Part shown: positions 4,170-36,964 of the stretch, in pieces | Numbering within the stretch: position 1 is the stretch's first letter | Layout of the letters: each line of letters begins with the position of its first letter | Assembly (NCBI GenBank): GCA_050010755.1 | Contig: JBEKKK010000001.1 | Coordinates: forward strand, 1,312,001 to 1,376,000 | Length of the DNA: 64,000 nt | Direction: 5' to 3' | Source: Candidatus Bathyarchaeia archaeon | GTDB taxonomy: Archaea > Thermoproteota > Bathyarchaeia > Bathyarchaeales > Bathycorpusculaceae | Made by a program: the position numbers and the translations under genes | The notes under the pieces: model-generated | What the model saw: only the letters and a program-made list of their open reading frames with translations | Told to the model about the DNA's origin: nothing | The model's database searches: none

Positions 4170-4370
4170 TTAGGGCCGTCTTTGTATGAGTATCCTGTCT
4201 ATTTTTCCTTCTGCTAGTTGTTCCTGCATCTCTTTGACGAAGCTGTAGAATTCGTCTGGAAACATGGCGGCTTCTGTGTTCATGTCGAACGTTTTTGTCT
4301 GGGCCACCGTGTTGGCGTAAAGGCCGTTCTTAATTCCTTCCACACTAACCCGTACCATACCATCATCCAT
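4170..4370 (-). CDS. Small hypothetical protein
   Basis: 66-aa ORF filling the gap; plausible composition. Confidence 0.45.
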   Translation of the reverse strand: MDDGMVRVSVEGIKNGLYANTVAQTKTFDMNTEAAMFPDEFYSFVKEMQEQLAEGKIDRILIQRRP

Positions 4371-4425
4371 GGAAATAAGAAAGGGAGATAGGTTATATGC
4401 ATATCTAACAAGTCAAGGCGTGCTA

Positions 4426-4623
4426 CTATCCTATTATTGATTGTACTCTGCCGACTTTCCCGTCTATCAGTCGTACCTTGATTCCGTGGGGGTGAGTTGA
4501 GCTGTTGGTGAGGATATTCTTGACGACGCCCTCGGTTAATTTGCCGTTGCGTTGGTCCTGCTTCAGGACGATTCTTACGCGGATACCAGGATTGATTTGG
4601 CTCCTCTGCTGATTTGGTTGCAT
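4426..4623 (-). CDS. YwbE/DUF2196 family protein
   Basis: IVLKQDQRNGKLTEGVVKNILTNSSTHPHGIKVRL. Confidence 0.9.
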   Translation of the reverse strand: MQPNQQRSQINPGIRVRIVLKQDQRNGKLTEGVVKNILTNSSTHPHGIKVRLIDGKVGRVQSIIG

Positions 4624-4739
4624 TTCCGATAATAGGTTCTTCGGGGCTTATAGCGTATTCGCACCGCTTATCCAAAACGATGAATCGGTGCCGAGGGCAA
4701 GCACGCGCTTTCCTTTTCTTCTACGACGTCGTCAGAAGT

Positions 4740-13554: not shown

Positions 13555-13680
13555 GGGGTTTGCCGGTCATAGGGCGTGGGTCCCACCTGATCCCATACCG
13601 AACTCAGAAGTTAAACCACGTTCCGTTTCCGGTTATAGTGTGGTCTTCGGCCATGTGAACCCGGGAAAGCTGGTAGCCCC
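13555..13680 (+). rRNA. rrf: 5S rRNA (stand-alone)
   Basis: CACCTGATCCCATACCGAACTCAGAAGTTAA signature; terminal GGGG/CCCC helix. Confidence 0.95.
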
Positions 13681-16957: not shown

Positions 16958-18088
16958 TCAACGTTTCACGTGATACTTCTCTACTTTGTCTCTTGCTTTT
17001 TCCCTTTTCTTCTGGTGTTCGGCGAGAAAACGGTTGATCCGTTCGGTCAGATCTTTTTTGCACTCGCCGCACATTATTCCGCCGGTTCTGCACAGTCTCT
17101 CTCTTTCGCTGAGTTTTTTGTCGTCTTCCTCGAAGAGGTAGAGGAAGTACTGGTACACGGAGCAAACGTCTGGGTTCGCGCCTTCCTTCCTCTGTTCCGC
17201 AACGGTTGCCTTTCCGCCCGTGAAGGCTTTCCAGACCTTTCTCTTCACGACATCGGGCGAGTCGACGGTGAATATTGCCGTGTCTGGCTCGGACGCGCTC
17301 ATTTTTCCTCCTATTCCCAGTCCCGGCAGGAAGCGATTATGAATTTGCGCGGGTTTGTAGTAGCCGAGTTTTGATGCGATGTCTCGGGTGATTCTCCAGT
17401 AAGGATCTTGATCGATGGCGGCCGGGATGAGTGCGGGAACGTTTTCTCCAGTCAGTTTCTTGTGTATGAAGCAGGGAACCGCTTGTACGGCGGGCCAGAA
17501 CACCCAGCCGAGGTTCATGCTCTCTTGAAACCCGAAAGTGGCTTTGGCCGTTGAGTAGGTTATCCGTTTGGCCACTTCCAATGCGATGTCGTAGAGCAGG
17601 TCGATGTCTTGAACGTCGTAGATTATGAACGTCTTCTCCGGTTCAAAACCCAGCGCTACCAAGTCTAGGGCGTTGTCGTAGCCCAATTGGGTGGTTTCGG
17701 CGAGTTTGCGTTCGTCGTCCACAACAAACTTCTCGTCGTCGGTCATTTGAAAATAGAGCCTGGTGTCAAACGCATCCTGCAGGTGTTTCGTGAAGATCCA
17801 CGGGACGAGATGTCCTATGTGAACAGGACCTGATGGGCCTCGCCCAGTGTACAACACGAATTTTGTTCCCTTGTCGTACAAGTCCAAAACCGTGTCCAAG
17901 TCGCGGTGAGAAAAGAACAGTTTTCTTCGCAGCTGGAGATGAATTTCACCCGTGTAATGTGCCAACCTCTTCAGCAGTTCGTCGGTCAGCGGTTGGGTTC
18001 CAAACTCACGTATCAAACGGTCATAGTCAACCTCACCCCGAACTTCCCACGGGGTGACGACCATTTCATTTTTCTTCTCACCCGTCAA
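16958..18088 (-). CDS. trpS: Tryptophanyl-tRNA synthetase
   Basis: VTPWEV, TGRGPSGPVHIGH, IDQDPY, KMSAS. Confidence 0.97.
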   Translation of the reverse strand: MTGEKKNEMVVTPWEVRGEVDYDRLIREFGTQPLTDELLKRLAHYTGEIHLQLRRKLFFSHRDLDTVLDLYDKGTKFVLYTGRGPSGPVHIGHLVPWIFTKHLQDAFDTRLYFQMTDDEKFVVDDERKLAETTQLGYDNALDLVALGFEPEKTFIIYDVQDIDLLYDIALEVAKRITYSTAKATFGFQESMNLGWVFWPAVQAVPCFIHKKLTGENVPALIPAAIDQDPYWRITRDIASKLGYYKPAQIHNRFLPGLGIGGKMSASEPDTAIFTVDSPDVVKRKVWKAFTGGKATVAEQRKEGANPDVCSVYQYFLYLFEEDDKKLSERERLCRTGGIMCGECKKDLTERINRFLAEHQKKREKARDKVEKYHVKR

Positions 18089-18273
18089 ATTTCACGCCTA
18101 CCACGGTTCCCTATACATTTCAAAGAAAAGTATTAAGTCTTGTGCGACATGCGCTCATGCCTTTCAAATGAGGCACGGTGTGAATTGTACGCGTTCCAGA
18201 GTCAGGCTTTTATTAAAATATGAGCATTTACATTACAAAATCCAATCTATCTGGCTCAAAGGTGCGGAACAGC

Positions 18274-19785
18274 ATGGTTGACTTGAGAGAACACGAACGT
18301 CGGACGCTTTCAGCGTTGAGCAACTTCATTGGGGAGGCGAACGTTGAGCAACTCATTCAGAATAGCGGACTGTCGGATGCGGCTGTGATGCGTGCCGCCT
18401 TGGCACTGCAGGAAAAAGGACTTATAACGATTCATGAATGCAGAGAGACGTTGCTGAAGCTCAGCGCAGAGGGAAAGCTTCACGCTAATAAGGGCCTGCC
18501 GGAACGGCGTCTCATGAACGCTTTAGAGAACCTCGGCGGGAAAGCTGCTCGCAAGGATGCCTTTGAAAAGGCAGGTTTGGAAAAGCAATTCATGCCAATC
18601 GCGCTGGGGTGGGCTCAGAAGAAAAAATGGACGATGCTCGACTCGAAAGCTGACGTGTTGCAGGCTATCGTTAAACCGGCAGTGGGTGACGATGAGAGGC
18701 TGCTCAAGGTTCTTGCTGAAAAGGAAAACGTGACGGCGGAAGAGTTAGATGCTAAGCTTCAAGGTGCTGTGCAGGTTCTTAAAGGAAGGAAGCTTCTCGA
18801 CGTCGAGGGAAAGATACGGCGCGTTTTTGAATTGACGGCAGCCGGAAAGCAAGGCTTGAGGGAAAGAAAGAGTGAGGCTCCTGAAGTGACACAGTTGACG
18901 CAGGAGCTTATCGTCGGCGGCAAATGGAAGAGTGTGAAGCTTCAAAGATACAACGTGGAGGCATCGGTGGCTGAGACATGGCCCGGCAAGAAGCATCCCT
19001 ACACACAATTCTTGGAAGAAGTGAGAGAAAAGCTTGTTACCCTGGGATTCAGAGAAATGATCGGCACGGCAGTTGAAACGTCCTTCTTTAACTTCGACGC
19101 CCTCTACACGCCCCAGGACCATCCGGCCCGAGAAGCATCAGGCATTTACTTCGTCAAATCGCCAAAAGAAGGAAGCATAGACGTTCCCGCGAAAATCCTT
19201 GACAACGTGAGAAAGACTCATGAAAACGGCTGGAAAACAGGCTCCACAGGCTGGAAATACAAGTACTCGGAGAAAGAAGCCAAACGACTCATTCTGCGAG
19301 GACACGGAACATGCCTCAGTGCTAGAACGTTGCTGAGCAAAGACCTGCAGGTTCCGGGTAGATACTTCTCGTTTGCGCGATGCTACAGACCGGAAATAGT
19401 TGACAAGCTGCACCTGACAGAGTTCAATCAGGTTGAAGGCATAATCATTGAAAAGGATTTGACGTTGCGAGATCTGCTGGGTGTGCTGGGAAAATTTGCC
19501 ACCGAAATCGCGGGGGCAGACAAGGTTAGGTTCAGGCCGGACTACTTTCCCTTCACGGAACCGAGCGTTGAACTTGCCGCGTACAAGAAAGGTGTCGGAT
19601 GGATAGAGTTCGGCGGCTCAGGAATTTTCAGACCCGAAGTTACAATGCCCATGGGCATCAAGGAGCCAGTTATCGCTTGGGGTTTAGGCATCGACCGATT
19701 GTTCATGATGAGGGCCAAGGTCGAGGAGATACGATACATTTTCAGCCAAGACCTAGACTGGGTCAGAAGGAAGGCGGTGGTCTAG
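18274..19785 (+). CDS. pheS: Phenylalanyl-tRNA synthetase alpha subunit
   Basis: GKKHPY, NFDALYTPQDHPARE, YFPFTEPS, AWGLGIDR. Confidence 0.97.
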   Translation: MVDLREHERRTLSALSNFIGEANVEQLIQNSGLSDAAVMRAALALQEKGLITIHECRETLLKLSAEGKLHANKGLPERRLMNALENLGGKAARKDAFEKAGLEKQFMPIALGWAQKKKWTMLDSKADVLQAIVKPAVGDDERLLKVLAEKENVTAEELDAKLQGAVQVLKGRKLLDVEGKIRRVFELTAAGKQGLRERKSEAPEVTQLTQELIVGGKWKSVKLQRYNVEASVAETWPGKKHPYTQFLEEVREKLVTLGFREMIGTAVETSFFNFDALYTPQDHPAREASGIYFVKSPKEGSIDVPAKILDNVRKTHENGWKTGSTGWKYKYSEKEAKRLILRGHGTCLSARTLLSKDLQVPGRYFSFARCYRPEIVDKLHLTEFNQVEGIIIEKDLTLRDLLGVLGKFATEIAGADKVRFRPDYFPFTEPSVELAAYKKGVGWIEFGGSGIFRPEVTMPMGIKEPVIAWGLGIDRLFMMRAKVEEIRYIFSQDLDWVRRKAVV

Positions 19786-21483
19786 ATGCCGACGATAGAC
19801 ATAGACTATGCCGAGTTCGAAAGGCTGCTCGGAAAAATGCTGCACAAAGACTTGGATGAGATCAACGATGCGCTTGCATTTGTCAAGGGAGAGGCGAACC
19901 TGTTCGATGAGAAAGAAGGAACTATGAGCGTTGAGATAAAGGATACAAATCGTCCGGACATCTGGAACATCGAGGGCCTAGTCAGAGCTCTGCGAGGGTT
20001 TCTGGGCATCGAAGAGGGTTTGAAGCGATATTCAGTTGGCAAGCAGTCAGCCGAGGTTCACGTTGATCAGGGACTGGAAAACATACGTCCCTACATCGGC
20101 TGCTCCATAGTCAAGAATCTGAAACTGAATGACACCATAATCCGCGGCTTCATGCACATGCAGGACAAGCTCGATCAGACTTACGGAAGGAACAGGCGGC
20201 GAACTTCAATCGGGCTTTACAACTTGGATTTAATTAAACTGCCGTTGCAGTATACGGTCGCAAAGCCGAATGAAATCAGCTTCGCGCCGCTGGGCTTCAC
20301 GGAAAAGATGAGCCTGAAAGAAATGCTTGCGCATCATCCGAAAGGCCTAGAGTACGGCCACATCGTCAGCAAACACGAGGTCTACCCCCTCCTCTTGGAC
20401 GCGGAGAACAAGCCTCTCTCCTTCCCTCCGATAATCAACTCTAACGACCTTGGAAGAATCACCGAAGATACAAAAAACGTTCTCGTCGAAGTTACAGGAA
20501 CAATGGAAGAGACAACGCTCAACACTCTGAAAATCGTCACCCTCTCCTTGATAGACCGTGGCGGCAAAGCTTACGCAGCCAAAATCCACTATCCGCACAG
20601 AAACTTGGACGTTCTGACACCAAGCTTCGAAACCGGCCAAATGGACTTGAACGTTGATTACGCCAACACTGTCTTGGGCTTGAAGCTGAAGGCCAAGCAG
20701 ATTGCACAGATGCTGCGCAAGGCAGGCCACGGCGCTGAAGAAACTGAGGGGAATAGTGTGCACGTGGAGATTCCGTGTTACAGAGTCGACGTGATGCATC
20801 CTGTAGATCTCGTCGAAGACGTTGCCATAGCCTACGATTACAACAACATCAAGCCGCTGTGGCGCGAAATGCCCACGACCGGAGGGGTGAGGCCTGAACA
20901 GAGATTGATTGGCGTGGCGAGAGAGTTGATGATTGGACTGGGGTTTCAGGAAGTCCTCACGTTCACACTTACGAACCCTGACACCCTCTTCAAGAAAATG
21001 AACCTCAAGAAAGAGAAGATAATTGAAATCTCCAACCCCAAAGTCAACACATTGACATGCCTGAGAAGCTGGTTGCTGCCCAACCTCATCGAATTTGTGA
21101 GCAACAACCTGCACGTTGAATGCCCGCAGAAAATATTCGAACTCGGCAAAGTCACCCTCCTCGATGAGAAGAGAGAAACTAGAAGCAGGGACGAAGACAG
21201 AGTTGCCGCAATCATCTACGACGCAAACGCCAGCTTCACAGAAGCCAAATCAACAGTCGAAGCTTTCATGGCGAACCTAGGGCTCAAATGGCAAATAAAA
21301 GAAACGGAACATCCCAGCTTCATAAGCGGCAGAGCAGGCGAGATAATCGTCGAAGGAACGGAAGTTGGAGTCTTGGGCGAAATCAACCCGAAAGTCCTCG
21401 AAGCATGGAAACTGGAAAACCCCACGGCAGCCTTCGAACTGGACGTTGAAAAGATAATCAAAATCAAACAAAAAAACAAGTGA
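19786..21483 (+). CDS. pheT: Phenylalanyl-tRNA synthetase beta subunit
   Basis: NRPD, SFPPIINS, PCYRVDVMHPVDLVEDVAIAY. Confidence 0.97.
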   Translation: MPTIDIDYAEFERLLGKMLHKDLDEINDALAFVKGEANLFDEKEGTMSVEIKDTNRPDIWNIEGLVRALRGFLGIEEGLKRYSVGKQSAEVHVDQGLENIRPYIGCSIVKNLKLNDTIIRGFMHMQDKLDQTYGRNRRRTSIGLYNLDLIKLPLQYTVAKPNEISFAPLGFTEKMSLKEMLAHHPKGLEYGHIVSKHEVYPLLLDAENKPLSFPPIINSNDLGRITEDTKNVLVEVTGTMEETTLNTLKIVTLSLIDRGGKAYAAKIHYPHRNLDVLTPSFETGQMDLNVDYANTVLGLKLKAKQIAQMLRKAGHGAEETEGNSVHVEIPCYRVDVMHPVDLVEDVAIAYDYNNIKPLWREMPTTGGVRPEQRLIGVARELMIGLGFQEVLTFTLTNPDTLFKKMNLKKEKIIEISNPKVNTLTCLRSWLLPNLIEFVSNNLHVECPQKIFELGKVTLLDEKRETRSRDEDRVAAIIYDANASFTEAKSTVEAFMANLGLKWQIKETEHPSFISGRAGEIIVEGTEVGVLGEINPKVLEAWKLENPTAAFELDVEKIIKIKQKNK

Positions 21484-21609
21484 AATCGCCGCAGCCAATC
21501 GAACATATTCCGTATGGGCTATGACATCATCGAAACGGCTACTCATCTATGAGTTTTGCAGGGCTCGACATTCAACATGTTTGGACAAGTGGAGTGGGAG
21601 ACAGCAACC

Positions 21610-21839
21610 CTTAACTTTTCAGCCGCTCCTTCTCTTCTGGCGATGACAGGAATTTGAGCCCTAGATAATCCCGCTGGCATATCCACGCAGACGGACTCAA
21701 CGGAAGAAGCAAGCTTCGCTTGCCGGTTCTTGTGATGGCGAGTTTACCCAAACGTGGGACACGGCGGGCGCGGGCCTAAAAAGCCTACGACGGAGAGAGC
21801 TTAACCTAGAGGAGCGTACCGCCCCACAGTGAAGTTAAG
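21610..21839 (+). ncRNA. Candidate structured ncRNA (nested long hairpin with kink-turn-like motif)
   Basis: About 7 nested helices read by eye; G-U pairs favour the + strand; no ORF. Confidence 0.5.
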
Positions 21840-21937
21840 TGTTTGGTTACGTAGGGAACAAGATGGCCCGCGAAAACAACTCTTAAGTTTGTCATGTGTA
21901 TACAGATAGGTAAAACCCGAAGCAGGCAGAGCAAAAT

Positions 21938-23026
21938 TTGGACTTAGAAACGAAAATCGAGCTTGTGTGCAGACCGCCGACGGAAGAAGTCATAACTCCT
22001 GAAGACTTGCGGAAACTCTTGGAGGTTGAGGAGCATCCGATAGCCTACAACGGCTGGGAACCGTCCGGTCTGGTTCACCTTGGAACAGGCGTCGTCTGCG
22101 CCTACAAGATGAAAGACTTCCTAGATGCTGGAATACGGTACAAGGCCTATCTTTCAACGTGGCATGCTTGGCTAAACAACAAGATGGGCGGCGACCTAAA
22201 ACTCATAAGAAAAGCCGCGGATCTCTTCAGACACTCATGGATAGCCCTGGGCGTTCCAGAAGACAAGGTCGAATTCATCTACTCGGACGAGCTTTACGAC
22301 GATTTGAAATACTGGGAAAAAACGGTGATGGTGTCGAAAAACCTCTCAATAGCGAGGGTGACACGCACGCTCGAGGTTGCAGGAAGACAGGAGTCTGAGG
22401 CCAAACACGTTTCGGACTACCTGTACACGCCCATGCAAGTAGCCGACATATTCCACATGGAAGTAAAAATTTGTCAACTAGGCATGGATCAACGCAAAGC
22501 AAACGTCGTGGCCAGAGAACTTGGCGAAAGGCTCGGGTTCTGGAAACCCGTGTGCGTGCACCACAGCTACCTCCAAGGCCTAGCGAAGCCGCCCATTTGG
22601 CCTATTCCGAAAGAGAAAGAAAGGGAAATACTCTCATCGATAAAAATGTCGAAGAGCAAGCCTGAAACCTGCATATTCATATACGACTCGCCCGAAGAAA
22701 TCAAACAGAAAATTTCACACGCCTTCTGCCCAGAAAAAACCGTGGAGTACAATCCAATCTTGGAGATATGCAAGTTCATAATATTCAGAGAAAACAAGGC
22801 CTTCACCATACAAAGACCGCCCAAATTTGGAGGGCCAATAGCTTTCGAAAACCTCAAGGAGCTCCAAAATGCGTACGCGGAAGGTAAACTTCATCCGCAG
22901 GACCTCAAGAACGCTGTGGCAGAAGAGCTCGCACGGATGCTTGAACCCGTGAGAAGATACTTCGAAAACAACAAAGAAGCAAGAGAATGCCTCAACGCGG
23001 TTAGCAACTCCAAAGTGACAAGGTGA
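21938..23026 (+). CDS. tyrS: Tyrosyl-tRNA synthetase
   Basis: AYNGWEPSGLVHLG, YTPMQVADI, GMDQRK, KMSKS, LHPQDLK. Confidence 0.97.
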   Translation: MDLETKIELVCRPPTEEVITPEDLRKLLEVEEHPIAYNGWEPSGLVHLGTGVVCAYKMKDFLDAGIRYKAYLSTWHAWLNNKMGGDLKLIRKAADLFRHSWIALGVPEDKVEFIYSDELYDDLKYWEKTVMVSKNLSIARVTRTLEVAGRQESEAKHVSDYLYTPMQVADIFHMEVKICQLGMDQRKANVVARELGERLGFWKPVCVHHSYLQGLAKPPIWPIPKEKEREILSSIKMSKSKPETCIFIYDSPEEIKQKISHAFCPEKTVEYNPILEICKFIIFRENKAFTIQRPPKFGGPIAFENLKELQNAYAEGKLHPQDLKNAVAEELARMLEPVRRYFENNKEARECLNAVSNSKVTR

Positions 23027-36644: not shown

Positions 36645-36964
36645 GGGCTGGCGAGTTGGTGTGTGGCTTTCGAGCCTAACATCTGAAAGGCTTGAGGAAA
36701 CTCCGCCCACGCGTAGAATTGCAACGCTCGAAAGGGCGTAAGGCGAGAGCCTTGGCTACGGAGCAGAAACGAAACGTCCGCTCGGCAAATGCCGATGACA
36801 CATGCTAAGTTGTCGAGAATGCCAAGCGTGAAACGGTGAAACGGCCGTCCTGCAAGTGGAAAGGGCAAACAGACGCTGATGAAGCATCTACCCGAAGCGC
36901 GGGTAGCCCGATTAGCCGAATGCCACAAAAAACAAAAGGCGGGTTACGGCCAACACGCCAGCCC
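36645..36964 (+). ncRNA. rnpB: RNase P RNA
   Basis: GAGGAAACTCCGCCC (P4 5'), TGAAACGGC, ACAAAAGGCGGGTTA (P4 3'), P1 GGGCTGGCG/CGCCAGCCC. Confidence 0.95.
36940..36963 (+). repeat. attL core CGGGTTACGGCCAACACGCCAGCC
   Basis: Identical to 45492-45515; part of rnpB. Confidence 0.92.

Follow-up and report, generated by a model that had tools for sequence, protein, structure and literature searches.

A kink-turn (K-turn) of the C/D type is made up of a bulge of three nucleotides (nt), GA opposite GA and a flanking Watson-Crick C helix. The eukaryotic H/ACA small nucleolar RNA snR30/U17 has internal-loop elements near its lower stem that pair with pre-rRNA for processing, not for pseudouridylation. 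In an archaeal H/ACA guide small RNA (sRNA) an ANA trinucleotide, usually ACA, comes immediately after the hairpin, the loop has bipartite complementarity to rRNA or tRNA on either side of a target U, and the partner proteins are Cbf5, Nop10, Gar1 and L7Ae. Archaeal H/ACA sRNAs contain one to three modules per RNA, with a K-turn or K-loop (PMC2377435, PMC11077068, PMC7991803). One such descriptor has a lower helix H1 of at least 7 base pairs (bp) and an internal loop of 5-11 nt per strand (PMC2377435), and the K-turn or K-loop is placed 5-6 bp above the pocket (PMC2377435, PMC7991803). From the pocket top to the ACA the expected distance is 14-16 nt; it is 14 or 15 nt in active Pyrococcus guides, and distances of 13 and 17 nt were inactive in the work of Muller and co-workers (PMC2377435). 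The H/ACA RNAs described from Crenarchaeota are single hairpins (PMC11077068). Here we analyse 64,000 nt of a Candidatus Bathyarchaeia archaeon (contig JBEKKK010000001.1, positions 1,312,001 to 1,376,000; hereafter the window), in which the gap between the genes pheT and tyrS holds an unannotated structured non-coding RNA gene on the + strand, common to many related Bathyarchaeia. The RNA is built like an H/ACA guide and is not filed as one here because its spacings, the pattern of its second loop and its enclosed ACAs deviate from the known plan. As a best explanation, held tentatively and short of an even chance, we propose that this is a separately transcribed gene for a trans-acting, L7Ae-bound ribonucleoprotein (RNP) on the multi-hairpin archaeal H/ACA plan.

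Conservation and distribution

Related loci were collected through a protein scan of genome contigs with the tyrosyl-tRNA synthetase (TyrRS): 255 stretches matched, 206 encode a relative and the best 80 were kept (TyrRS identity 72-92%; 78 labelled Bathyarchaeia or Bathyarchaeota; individual loci are given by L numbers). BLASTN with the sequence of the gap matched in 43 of the 80 loci, and nhmmer iterated over three rounds returned a single match per locus in 48, all of them on the tyrS strand and upstream of tyrS. The 283-position nhmmer profile maps to positions 21601-21885 of the window on the + strand (E = 7e-76). A first-pass annotation of the window, made from its letters without database searches, had proposed an unannotated structured RNA on this strand with ends at 21610 and 21839, in a gap of about 450 bp. 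The RNA is borne out by the conserved, covarying block and the gap measures 454 nt (21484-21937), while the ends are superseded, as the block extends 9 nt further on the 5' side and 46 nt further on the 3' side. The window and the 37 full-length matches (38 sequences) form alignment A1, which was made with MAFFT and is not fitted to structure; the 11 partial matches left out of it are L008, L014, L018, L024, L044, L045, L047, L051, L057, L072 and L073. Covariance models were built by arm of the structure described below. R1 (arm 2, from alignment A2) matches 49 of 81 sources, the window and 48 loci, and R2 (arm 1, from alignment A5) matches 47 of 81, the window and 46 loci (L051 runs into the end of its contig, L073 gives no match, and the matches in L047 and L008 are weak). 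Covariance model searches of the other 32 of the 80 tyrS loci gave no match even at E up to 10.

No Rfam 15 family reaches its gathering score in the pheT-tyrS gap, a permissive Rfam scan of 21400-22000 returned only two junk matches (E of at least 4.9), and a scan of nine relatives found nothing on the RNA element. The first-pass annotation had noted the lack of signal recognition particle (SRP) and RNase P signatures, and the covariance models for archaeal SRP RNA and RNase P RNA indeed have no match in the gap. A literature search on archaeal H/ACA sRNAs and on structured RNAs of Bathyarchaeia found no such RNA described in Bathyarchaeia. Two 2026 preprints on prokaryotic non-coding elements showed no mention of Bathyarchaeia, K-turns or L7Ae when searched for these terms, and their supplements could list the RNA.

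The distribution bears directly on whether the RNA acts in cis, as the first-pass annotation suggested in naming it a possible regulator of the aromatic synthetase cluster. A tyrS leader, or a regulator of the cluster working for instance through L7Ae or tRNA binding, would fit the position of all 48 copies, which precede tyrS and share its strand; for 13 of the 48 loci the block ends 48-65 nt before the tyrS start codon (53 nt in the window). This linkage is, however, partly built in, as the loci were fetched via tyrS, and 32 of the 80 tyrS loci lack the RNA. Across the 48 loci the distance from block to tyrS runs from 48 to 4508 nt; in nine of them the RNA stands 1140-4508 nt away with other genes between, and a place immediately upstream of the regulated gene is thus not common to all members. 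Conservation of sequence ends about 50 nt before the tyrS start codon in A1. The RNA showed neither an alternative pairing of the terminator or anti-terminator kind nor any overlap with the ribosome binding site. In many copies a T-rich stretch and a TATA-like TTTTAAG or TCTTAAG follow the RNA, which also has a promoter-like box of its own (see below). The gene on the other side changes as well: pheT lies upstream of the block in only 16 of the 48 loci (its stop codon is 6-26 nt away in 13), and a tRNA-His gene, found in 7 of 60 loci scanned, ends on the same strand 21-58 nt before the block in three (L021, L028 and L058). We regard a cis-acting leader as unlikely by a wide measure, and the RNA block as an independent unit. 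The tRNA-His(GUG) genes of L021, L028 and L058 occupy 2159-2234, 4303-4376 and 4551-4624, respectively; the others are in L022, L027, L046 and L054.

Secondary structure and covariation

We propose that the RNA forms two successive hairpin arms, which rest on a pair of G+C-rich helices, P_A and P_B, stacked on each other. Each arm consists of a lower stem, a large conserved internal loop and an upper stem, and one of the G+C-rich helices encloses each arm. On A1, 82.1% of the cells of this structure are paired, against 33-44% in a slid control in which the partners are shifted by 1-3 columns, and 31 of 61 pairs change on both sides. The alignments of the single arms are fitted to the models and therefore lean toward the structure. 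In arm 1, 90.7% of cells are paired (35-46% when slid by 1-3 columns). Both-side changes occur there in 23 of 31 pairs and in 159 cells, compared with 50.5 in shuffles; none of 500 shuffles reached as high a count, and the covariation score is 0.372, against 0.183 shuffled and at most 0.094 slid. In arm 2 the paired share is 86.8% (33-45% slid), with both-side changes in 17 of 29 pairs and in 80 cells, against 34.4 shuffled. Covariation is strong in both arms.

RNAalifold on A1 returned CCAUG/CAUGG, CGGG/CCCG, CCC.CG/CG.GGG and GCUUAAC/GUUAAG, and so recovered four supported helices independently. The minimum free energy (MFE) fold of window positions 21639-21882 contains every supported helix. 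Folded as a single sequence, the longer span 21600-21850 on the + strand does no better than chance: its MFE is -72.3 kcal/mol, whereas shuffled versions average -74.4 (z = +0.44) and 122 of 200 equal or surpass it. The - strand gives z = -0.17.

The first-pass annotation had drawn a different fold, a rod over 21610-21839 closed by CTTAACTT/AAGTTAAG, in which GCGATGA faces ACGA as a box C/D-like kink-turn. All eight of its complementary segment pairs and the GCGATGA motif are present where it placed them. On the related loci the inner helices CCCGCTG/CGGCGGG, CCACG/CGTGG and GACTC/GAGTT and the apical GCAAGC are supported by covariation, but the four outer helices are not, and RNAalifold did not return the rod. 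Three of those four are only 50-74% paired on A1 (CGCTCCT/AGGAGCG 50.2%, TCTCTTC/GGAGAGA 68.0%, GCCC/GGGC 73.6%), and their 5' strands lie in an unconserved stretch of near-constant length. The outer helices together reach 73.4%, compared with 71.5% in shuffles. The closing helix speaks more for the rod, with 93.8% paired on A1 and one pair that changes from U-A to C-G in 8 sequences of one clade, a change that may be more than chance. AAGTTAAG nevertheless fits an internal partner, GCUUAAC at 21799-21805, better (96.2% paired): over six core pairs with 228 cells each in the 38 sequences, 8 are unpaired with the 5' box CTTAACTT and 1 with the internal partner, and in L040, L054 and L074 compensating changes are seen in the internal partner but not in the 5' box.

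The rod meets further difficulties at its kink-turn and at its 5' end. The GCGATGA segment is absent in 20 of 45 copies, and there the 5' box stands 29-33 nt from P_A instead. The GGC before GAUGA is unable to pair with the CGG after ACGA and is perfectly matched by a local GCC; GCGATGA closes a local hairpin with GA-GCC (21656-21660), and ACGA falls in loop 2 with no C helix possible. No conserved promoter lies upstream of 21601, and many loci have a pheT stop codon or a tRNA gene right next to the block. Taken together these observations leave the rod very improbable. As for its kink-turn, motifs of the L7Ae-bound kind are present as claimed; the partner was wrongly chosen, and a better K-turn in arm 1 (21701-21704 with 21732-21738) was missed.

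Arm 1 and its K-turn

P_A, the outer helix around arm 1, pairs 21670-21676 with 21762-21768. It is paired in 97.1% of cells (87.7% on the MAFFT alignment A1), and six of its seven pairs change on both sides, one of them occurring as AU in 18, GC in 11, CG in 9 and GU in 6 copies. The lower stem P1 (21682-21687 with 21753-21758) was found independently by RNAalifold and is 90.6% paired, with UA/CG and GC/AU exchanges. Internal loop 1 follows, with CAGAC as its 5' strand (21688-21692; NNGAC in 44 of 47 copies, the conserved GAC adjoining P2) and ACCCAAA as its 3' strand (21746-21752; ACCCAA in 45 of 47 copies, in columns that are invariant in A1). P2 (21693-21698 with 21740-21745) has 6 bp, including two basal G.U pairs, and is 96.3% paired; one of its pairs is CG in 24, UA in 11 and UG in 9 copies. 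An ACA at 21759-21761, directly after P1, fills the linker between P1 and P_A in 47 of 47 copies. The end of P2 is 13 nt from this ACA in 46 of 47 copies (14 nt if the first paired base is counted).

Above P2 the arm ends in a K-turn with a capped C helix (21699-21739). C-N-GA (CGGA, 21701-21704) lies opposite GUGAUGG (21732-21738), with a 3-nt bulge, UGU, at 21731-21733; the C stem pairs 21705-21708 with 21727-21730 and the apical hairpin spans 21709-21723. Of 47 rows, 44 have both the N-G-A and the R-U-G-A-N-R motif. The C helix covaries, with AU in 22 and GC in 18 copies at one pair and GC in 30, AU in 5 and CG in 2 at another, and the C-G pair that adjoins the G.A pairs is U-A in L054. The sequence pattern of a K-turn, namely a 3-nt bulge, GA opposite GA and a Watson-Crick C helix, is therefore found in arm 1, and judged by its sequence the arm holds a well-formed K-turn of the C/D type. 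From the K-turn consensus, the G.A pairs are expected to be sheared. The K-turn pattern is also described in PMC7991803.

A second K-turn is optional. At 21639-21660 the window has a 5' hairpin of GGC, a GAU bulge, GA, a 9-nt loop, GA and GCC, which is also in the MFE fold. It is present in 25 of 45 copies, invariably as GAUGA...GA; the stem is mostly GGC/GCC, AGC/GCU or GGC/GCU, and in four loci it has only 2 bp. GAUGA and GA are 3-9 nt apart.

The K-turn motif also carries an AUG or GUG, and a micro-protein gene could start there, encoding a peptide with GLPKHGTRWARA. A start-codon open reading frame (ORF) in that frame occurs in 35 of 48 copies, and L073, L008 and L047 carry ORFs of 45-65 codons that keep the frame through a diverged N-terminal part. 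Against this, 13 of the 48 copies have no start codon in frame, the stop positions range from 15 to 189 codons, and the close relatives L078 and L076 differ by a frame shift. Variability is flat by codon position (0.42, 0.49 and 0.53 bits), and the substitutions, radical as amino acid changes (W/R/G, H/R/Y), are the compensated changes of P_A, P1 and P2. The peptide has no significant Pfam match and no NCBIfam match. The RUGA motif, whose spacing the structure fixes, yields a start codon as a by-product, and we hold a protein-coding role to be the least probable of the readings discussed here.

Two kinds of departure from the common form of arm 1 were seen. The linker between P_A and P1 is expanded by an extra small hairpin or by 8-10 bases in L050, L068, L041, L039, L034 and L074, and likewise in the group L078/L076/L070/L059/L027/L021/L028, at a type of site typical of structured RNAs. 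In L008 (4620-4875), L073 (3930-4185), L047 (1800-2065) and L044 (600-885), the 5' half of arm 1 or its apical K-turn is replaced by A/C-rich or other sequence; the same four loci keep the 3' half of arm 1 (GACGGGUUUACCCAAGCAUGGGACACGGUGGG) and all of arm 2. In three of them the ORF of 45-65 codons passes through this retained half, and in L073 remnants of the 5' strand of P_A are still visible.

Arm 2

P_B, the outer helix around arm 2, pairs 21769-21776 with 21865-21872 and begins at the base right after P_A, with no linker. It is 83.9% paired; five of its eight pairs change on both sides, in few cells, and its core was found by RNAalifold. Lower stem 2 (21783-21789 with 21850-21856) is 95.0% paired, with CG/UA exchanges in 5 and at least 10 cells, and the pair at its outer end, U-A in most copies, is G.G in the window. 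The 5' strand of internal loop 2, ACGGAGAGA (21790-21798), measures 8 or 9 nt, and GAGAGA adjoins the mid stem in 41 of 49 copies. The 3' strand, GUUUGGUUA at 21841-21849, has the consensus GUUAGGUUA, which occurs as such or with one base changed in 46 of 49 copies. One nucleotide after lower stem 2 comes an ACA (21858-21860), found in 49 of 49 copies. In both arms the bases around the ACA vary while the ACA itself is invariant.

Mid stem 2 (21799-21805 with 21834-21840) is 89-96% paired and shows compensated changes in L040 (CUUGAC/GUCAAG), L054 and L074; from its end to the ACA there are 17 nt in 40 of 49 copies (range 16-18). At its basal pair (columns 36/83 of alignment A3; 21799/21840 in the window) 30 of 49 copies have G.U and 16 have a non-standard pair. 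In rows read by eye (L040, L032) the non-standard pair is A.C, which is isosteric with G.U, and this exchange suggests that the wobble shape at this place is itself selected. The apical part of the arm (21806-21833), with a hairpin of 21811-21816 and 21820-21825, is 77.9% paired, and four of its six pairs covary. No conserved K-turn was found in arm 2: several registers were tried by hand and none fits, and one clade is without GA dinucleotides. The pairs of loop sequences differ by clade, being UAGA/ACAAUGA in one and AAGC/GCUAUGC in another.

The 9-nt form of the loop 2 5' strand occurs mostly in copies with the 5' K-turn hairpin, and the 8-nt form in copies without it. Shared ancestry, or a contact between the hairpin and loop 2, could be behind this link.

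Promoter-like box, strand and predicted RNA ends

The first conserved element of the block is ACAGCAACCCTTAACTT (21601-21617, + strand), which resembles a B recognition element and TATA box. It is followed by a spacer (21618-21638) of near-constant length and unconserved sequence up to the predicted transcription start. Across the copies the order is a conserved ACAGnAACnTTTAAC, then 21-25 nt without sequence conservation, then the first RNA helix. In 38 of 45 copies that helix is preceded by a YTTAWH box whose start lies 29-33 nt away, and this spacing holds whether the first helix is the K-turn hairpin (25 copies) or P_A (the others). Among the remaining seven copies, L064 has a box about 30 nt upstream when read by eye, and six have a different A/T-rich box in a similar place. 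CTTA-type boxes also stand about 30 nt upstream of the 5' ends of the 5S rRNA and of the RNase P RNA in the same window. From these positions we infer that the conserved box is a DNA signal, a promoter rather than part of the RNA, and because of the spacing of the box transcription is predicted to start near G21639.

The 3' end is less clear than the 5' end. An A-rich tail with a weak T-rich end, AAAACAACTCTT, lies at 21873-21884 on the + strand; a run of at least 4 T falls within 30 nt of P_B in 24 of 49 copies and one of at least 3 T in 34 of 49. The most probable extent of the RNA is therefore some 245 nt, about 21639-21884, with both ends predicted. The + strand is assigned because the promoter-like box is on that side, the motifs are GA-based, the triplets read ACA and G.U cells outnumber A.C cells in the modelled pairs, the last by a modest margin (248 vs 170).

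A proposed H/ACA-like RNP as best explanation

According to the H/ACA-like explanation, the RNA would be transcribed from its own TATA-like promoter, separately from tyrS. L7Ae would bind the K-turn or K-turns, and a PUA-domain protein of the Cbf5 type would dock on stem and ACA. The conserved internal loops would base-pair with a conserved cellular RNA, most likely rRNA. As both H/ACA spacing rules are missed, the RNA may help to fold or process this target rather than make pseudouridine. In line with the known modules, a hairpin is followed by an ACA in every copy of either arm. The internal loop of arm 1 has strands of 5 and 7 nt, that of arm 2 strands of 8-9 and 9 nt. Throughout loop 1, as well as along the 5' strand of loop 2, the conserved bases adjoin the upper stem and the variable bases the lower stem. 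As to the lower helix, P1 has five firm pairs and a further U.G or C-G in 24 of 45 distinct rows, and the stem of arm 2 has 7 bp.

Several observations weigh against this explanation. The G.A pairs of arm 1 stand four layers (A.C, A.G, C-G, R.U) above the 6-bp P2, that is, about 10 layers above the loop where the rule has 5-6, and arm 2 has neither a conserved K-turn nor a GA/GA motif. The 13 nt of arm 1 (46 of 47) and the 17 nt of arm 2 (40 of 49) both fall outside the 14-16 nt expected between pocket and ACA. In the 3' strand of loop 2 the most invariant bases (AGGUUA) adjoin the lower stem, not the guide-pairing top, and both ACAs lie within internal loops that P_A or P_B closes, rather than in a free tail or hinge. 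Retention of the 3' half of arm 1 in the four loci with a replaced 5' half or K-turn is not explained by pairing alone. Folded as a single sequence, the refined span 21639-21882 shows no significant stability (z = -1.02; 30 of 200 shuffles do equally well). Finally, a target scan of Escherichia coli rRNA, used as a stand-in for the host rRNA, gave nothing convincing, with weak or G.U-rich matches, and in a scan of the window's 5S rRNA and RNase P RNA and of four tRNA-His genes, partial matches to the T arm were all that appeared.

Two rRNA positions were considered individually on the E. coli stand-in and rejected. U1091 of 16S rRNA would pair with loop 1 through 6+3 bp with three unpaired bases, which is unconvincing; U1991 of 23S rRNA would pair with loop 2 of the window through 9+4 bp including four G.U, and fails with the consensus loop. 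Probes made from E. coli 16S and 23S rRNA found no rRNA in the window or in the 80 loci. The pattern TTGGGTNNGTC has 13 matches in the window, with 11.8 expected. A guide for position 35 of tRNA-Tyr is reported from Sulfolobales (PMC2651775); no tRNA-Tyr was found in the window or in 60 loci scanned.

Alternatively, the RNA may be a K-turn RNP RNA of a new kind, functionally unrelated to H/ACA guides and serving as a scaffold, chaperone or regulator, a prospect that we take seriously while also giving it less than even weight. Here a pseudo-symmetric two-armed RNA would bind L7Ae together with another, perhaps dimeric, protein through its loops and ACA loops. The structure and conservation described above count in its favour, and both H/ACA spacing rules fail. 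The arms are built alike, each with an outer helix, an A-rich loop that holds the ACA, a stem, the conserved loop and a further stem. Loop sequences persist even in copies where arm 1 has lost its pairing partners, and no Rfam family matches. A precedent is sR666 of Sulfolobus islandicus, a K-turn hairpin without guide loops that binds L7Ae and Cbf5-Nop10 (PMC11077068). Such an RNP names no concrete mechanism, however, and the neighbouring genes (trpS, pheS, pheT, tyrS, a small Toprim protein, dnaG and polB) suggest no partner protein. An invariant ACA right after the stem that closes a large loop, occurring twice, moreover has the look of the H/ACA module.

A further reading joins elements of both. 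The RNA may be the first member of a new class of archaeal K-turn RNP RNAs, pseudo-symmetric and two-armed, that has borrowed the H/ACA module; it would make no pseudouridine, because both spacing rules are broken, and its invariant loops would hold a conserved RNA such as pre-rRNA so that this can be folded or cleaved. We consider this possible though doubtful. By analogy it might be an archaeal counterpart of the non-modifying snR30/U17 type, a comparison that we rate just as doubtful.

Genomic context and sample

The gap between pheT and tyrS contains no ORF of more than 47 codons and no tRNA or tmRNA gene. A promoter and terminator scan of the gap used bacterial models, which are uninformative for an archaeal host. 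Upstream and downstream, NCBIfam equivalog models name trpS (16961-18088, - strand), pheS (18220-19782), pheT (19786-21480) and tyrS (21938-23023); a small Toprim protein and dnaG were also named near the RNA by these models, and Pfam was run as well. The window is archaeal and carries an archaeal RNase P RNA at 36651-36958 (Rfam, 196.9 bits) and a 5S rRNA at 13559-13678 (Rfam). The 5S rRNA gene stands by itself, with 16S and 23S not nearby. The P1 helix of the RNase P RNA (GGGCTGGCG with CGCCAGCCC) reaches a few bases past the Rfam match, to give 36645-36962.

Some of the loci call for comment. L003 (labelled Acidiferrales bacterium) and L054 (labelled Nanoarchaeia archaeon) have a Bathyarchaeia-like tyrS (82% and 76% identity) and the RNA, and are probably mis-binned contigs. 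Three metagenome-assembled genomes each have two different tyrS loci (L016/L018, L020/L033 and L026/L027; 73-75% identity to the query); the RNA is present in L018 and L027 and absent at L016 and L026, and L020 and L033 both lack it. The presence of paired tyrS loci within one assembled genome points to mixed bins or to paralogous tyrS copies. In the two closest relatives, L001 (3895-4659) and L029 (3860-4660), a 196-codon gene on the opposite strand lies between pheT and the RNA gene; the counterpart of this interval in the window is only 117 nt. In L005, L009 and L030 the gaps of 310-430 nt between the RNA and tyrS hold an ORF of 40-48 codons with the shared motif ...F.E.TPSK.AIEKHYREFGDEY...

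Comparison with known systems

Archaea have few large, well-structured non-coding RNAs apart from rRNA, tRNA, SRP RNA and RNase P RNA, and we know of none described for Bathyarchaeia, an abundant uncultured lineage. The present family brings a structure supported by covariation and a plausible protein partner, L7Ae. If it is a relative of H/ACA RNAs, the range of H/ACA RNAs known from TACK archaea (Thaumarchaeota, Aigarchaeota, Crenarchaeota and Korarchaeota) is widened to multi-hairpin RNAs with enclosed modules and shifted spacings, and the family would test how strict the distance rules of Cbf5 and L7Ae are. If it is not, it represents a new RNP. In either case the covariance models can be used to annotate the RNA in metagenome-assembled genomes, where the region is now blank.

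Closest in architecture are the multi-hairpin archaeal H/ACA sRNAs Pab35 and Pab40 of Pyrococcus abyssi and sR-h45 of Haloferax volcanii (PMC2377435, PMC7075261). Like these, the RNA has modules of lower stem, large loop and upper stem followed by an ACA, a K-turn high in the hairpin with an apical C helix, conserved loop sequences on covarying stems, the form of a small independent gene, and L7Ae as the expected binder of the K-turn. Unlike them, it has ACA distances of 13 and 17 nt, a K-turn about 10 layers up, and a second arm without a conserved K-turn; its modules and ACAs are enclosed by P_A and P_B, and about half of the species have an extra K-turn hairpin at the 5' end.

Its K-turns resemble those of C/D-type RNAs. 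Arm 1 has R-U-G-A-N-R opposite C-N-G-A, a 3-nt bulge and a Watson-Crick C helix, in the order D-like box, hairpin, C-like box, which is the order of a C'/D' motif, and the 5' hairpin has GAUGA...GA. A box C/D sRNA has box C close to its 5' end and box D (CUGA) close to its 3' end, D' and C' boxes inside and guides of 10-12 nt. In contrast to an archaeal C/D sRNA, the RNA has no box D near its 3' end, which reads GCCCGCG with an A-rich tail and no CUGA; it has no guide spacers of 10-12 nt between boxes, and its length is roughly four times that of such an sRNA. The sequences on either side of the arm 1 motif are not free guides but form P2 together.

Like sR666 of S. islandicus and the atypical H/ACA RNAs, it belongs among K-turn RNAs of TACK archaea that depart from the classic plan; those RNAs bind L7Ae and Cbf5-Nop10 (PMC11077068). 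By comparison, the atypical H/ACA RNAs are without lower stem and ACA, both of which the present RNA has, and sR666 is a single hairpin without large loops, unlike the two-armed RNA (PMC11077068). For arm 2 only, snR30/U17 offers a possible analogy, although it is eukaryotic, has no K-turn and differs in size.

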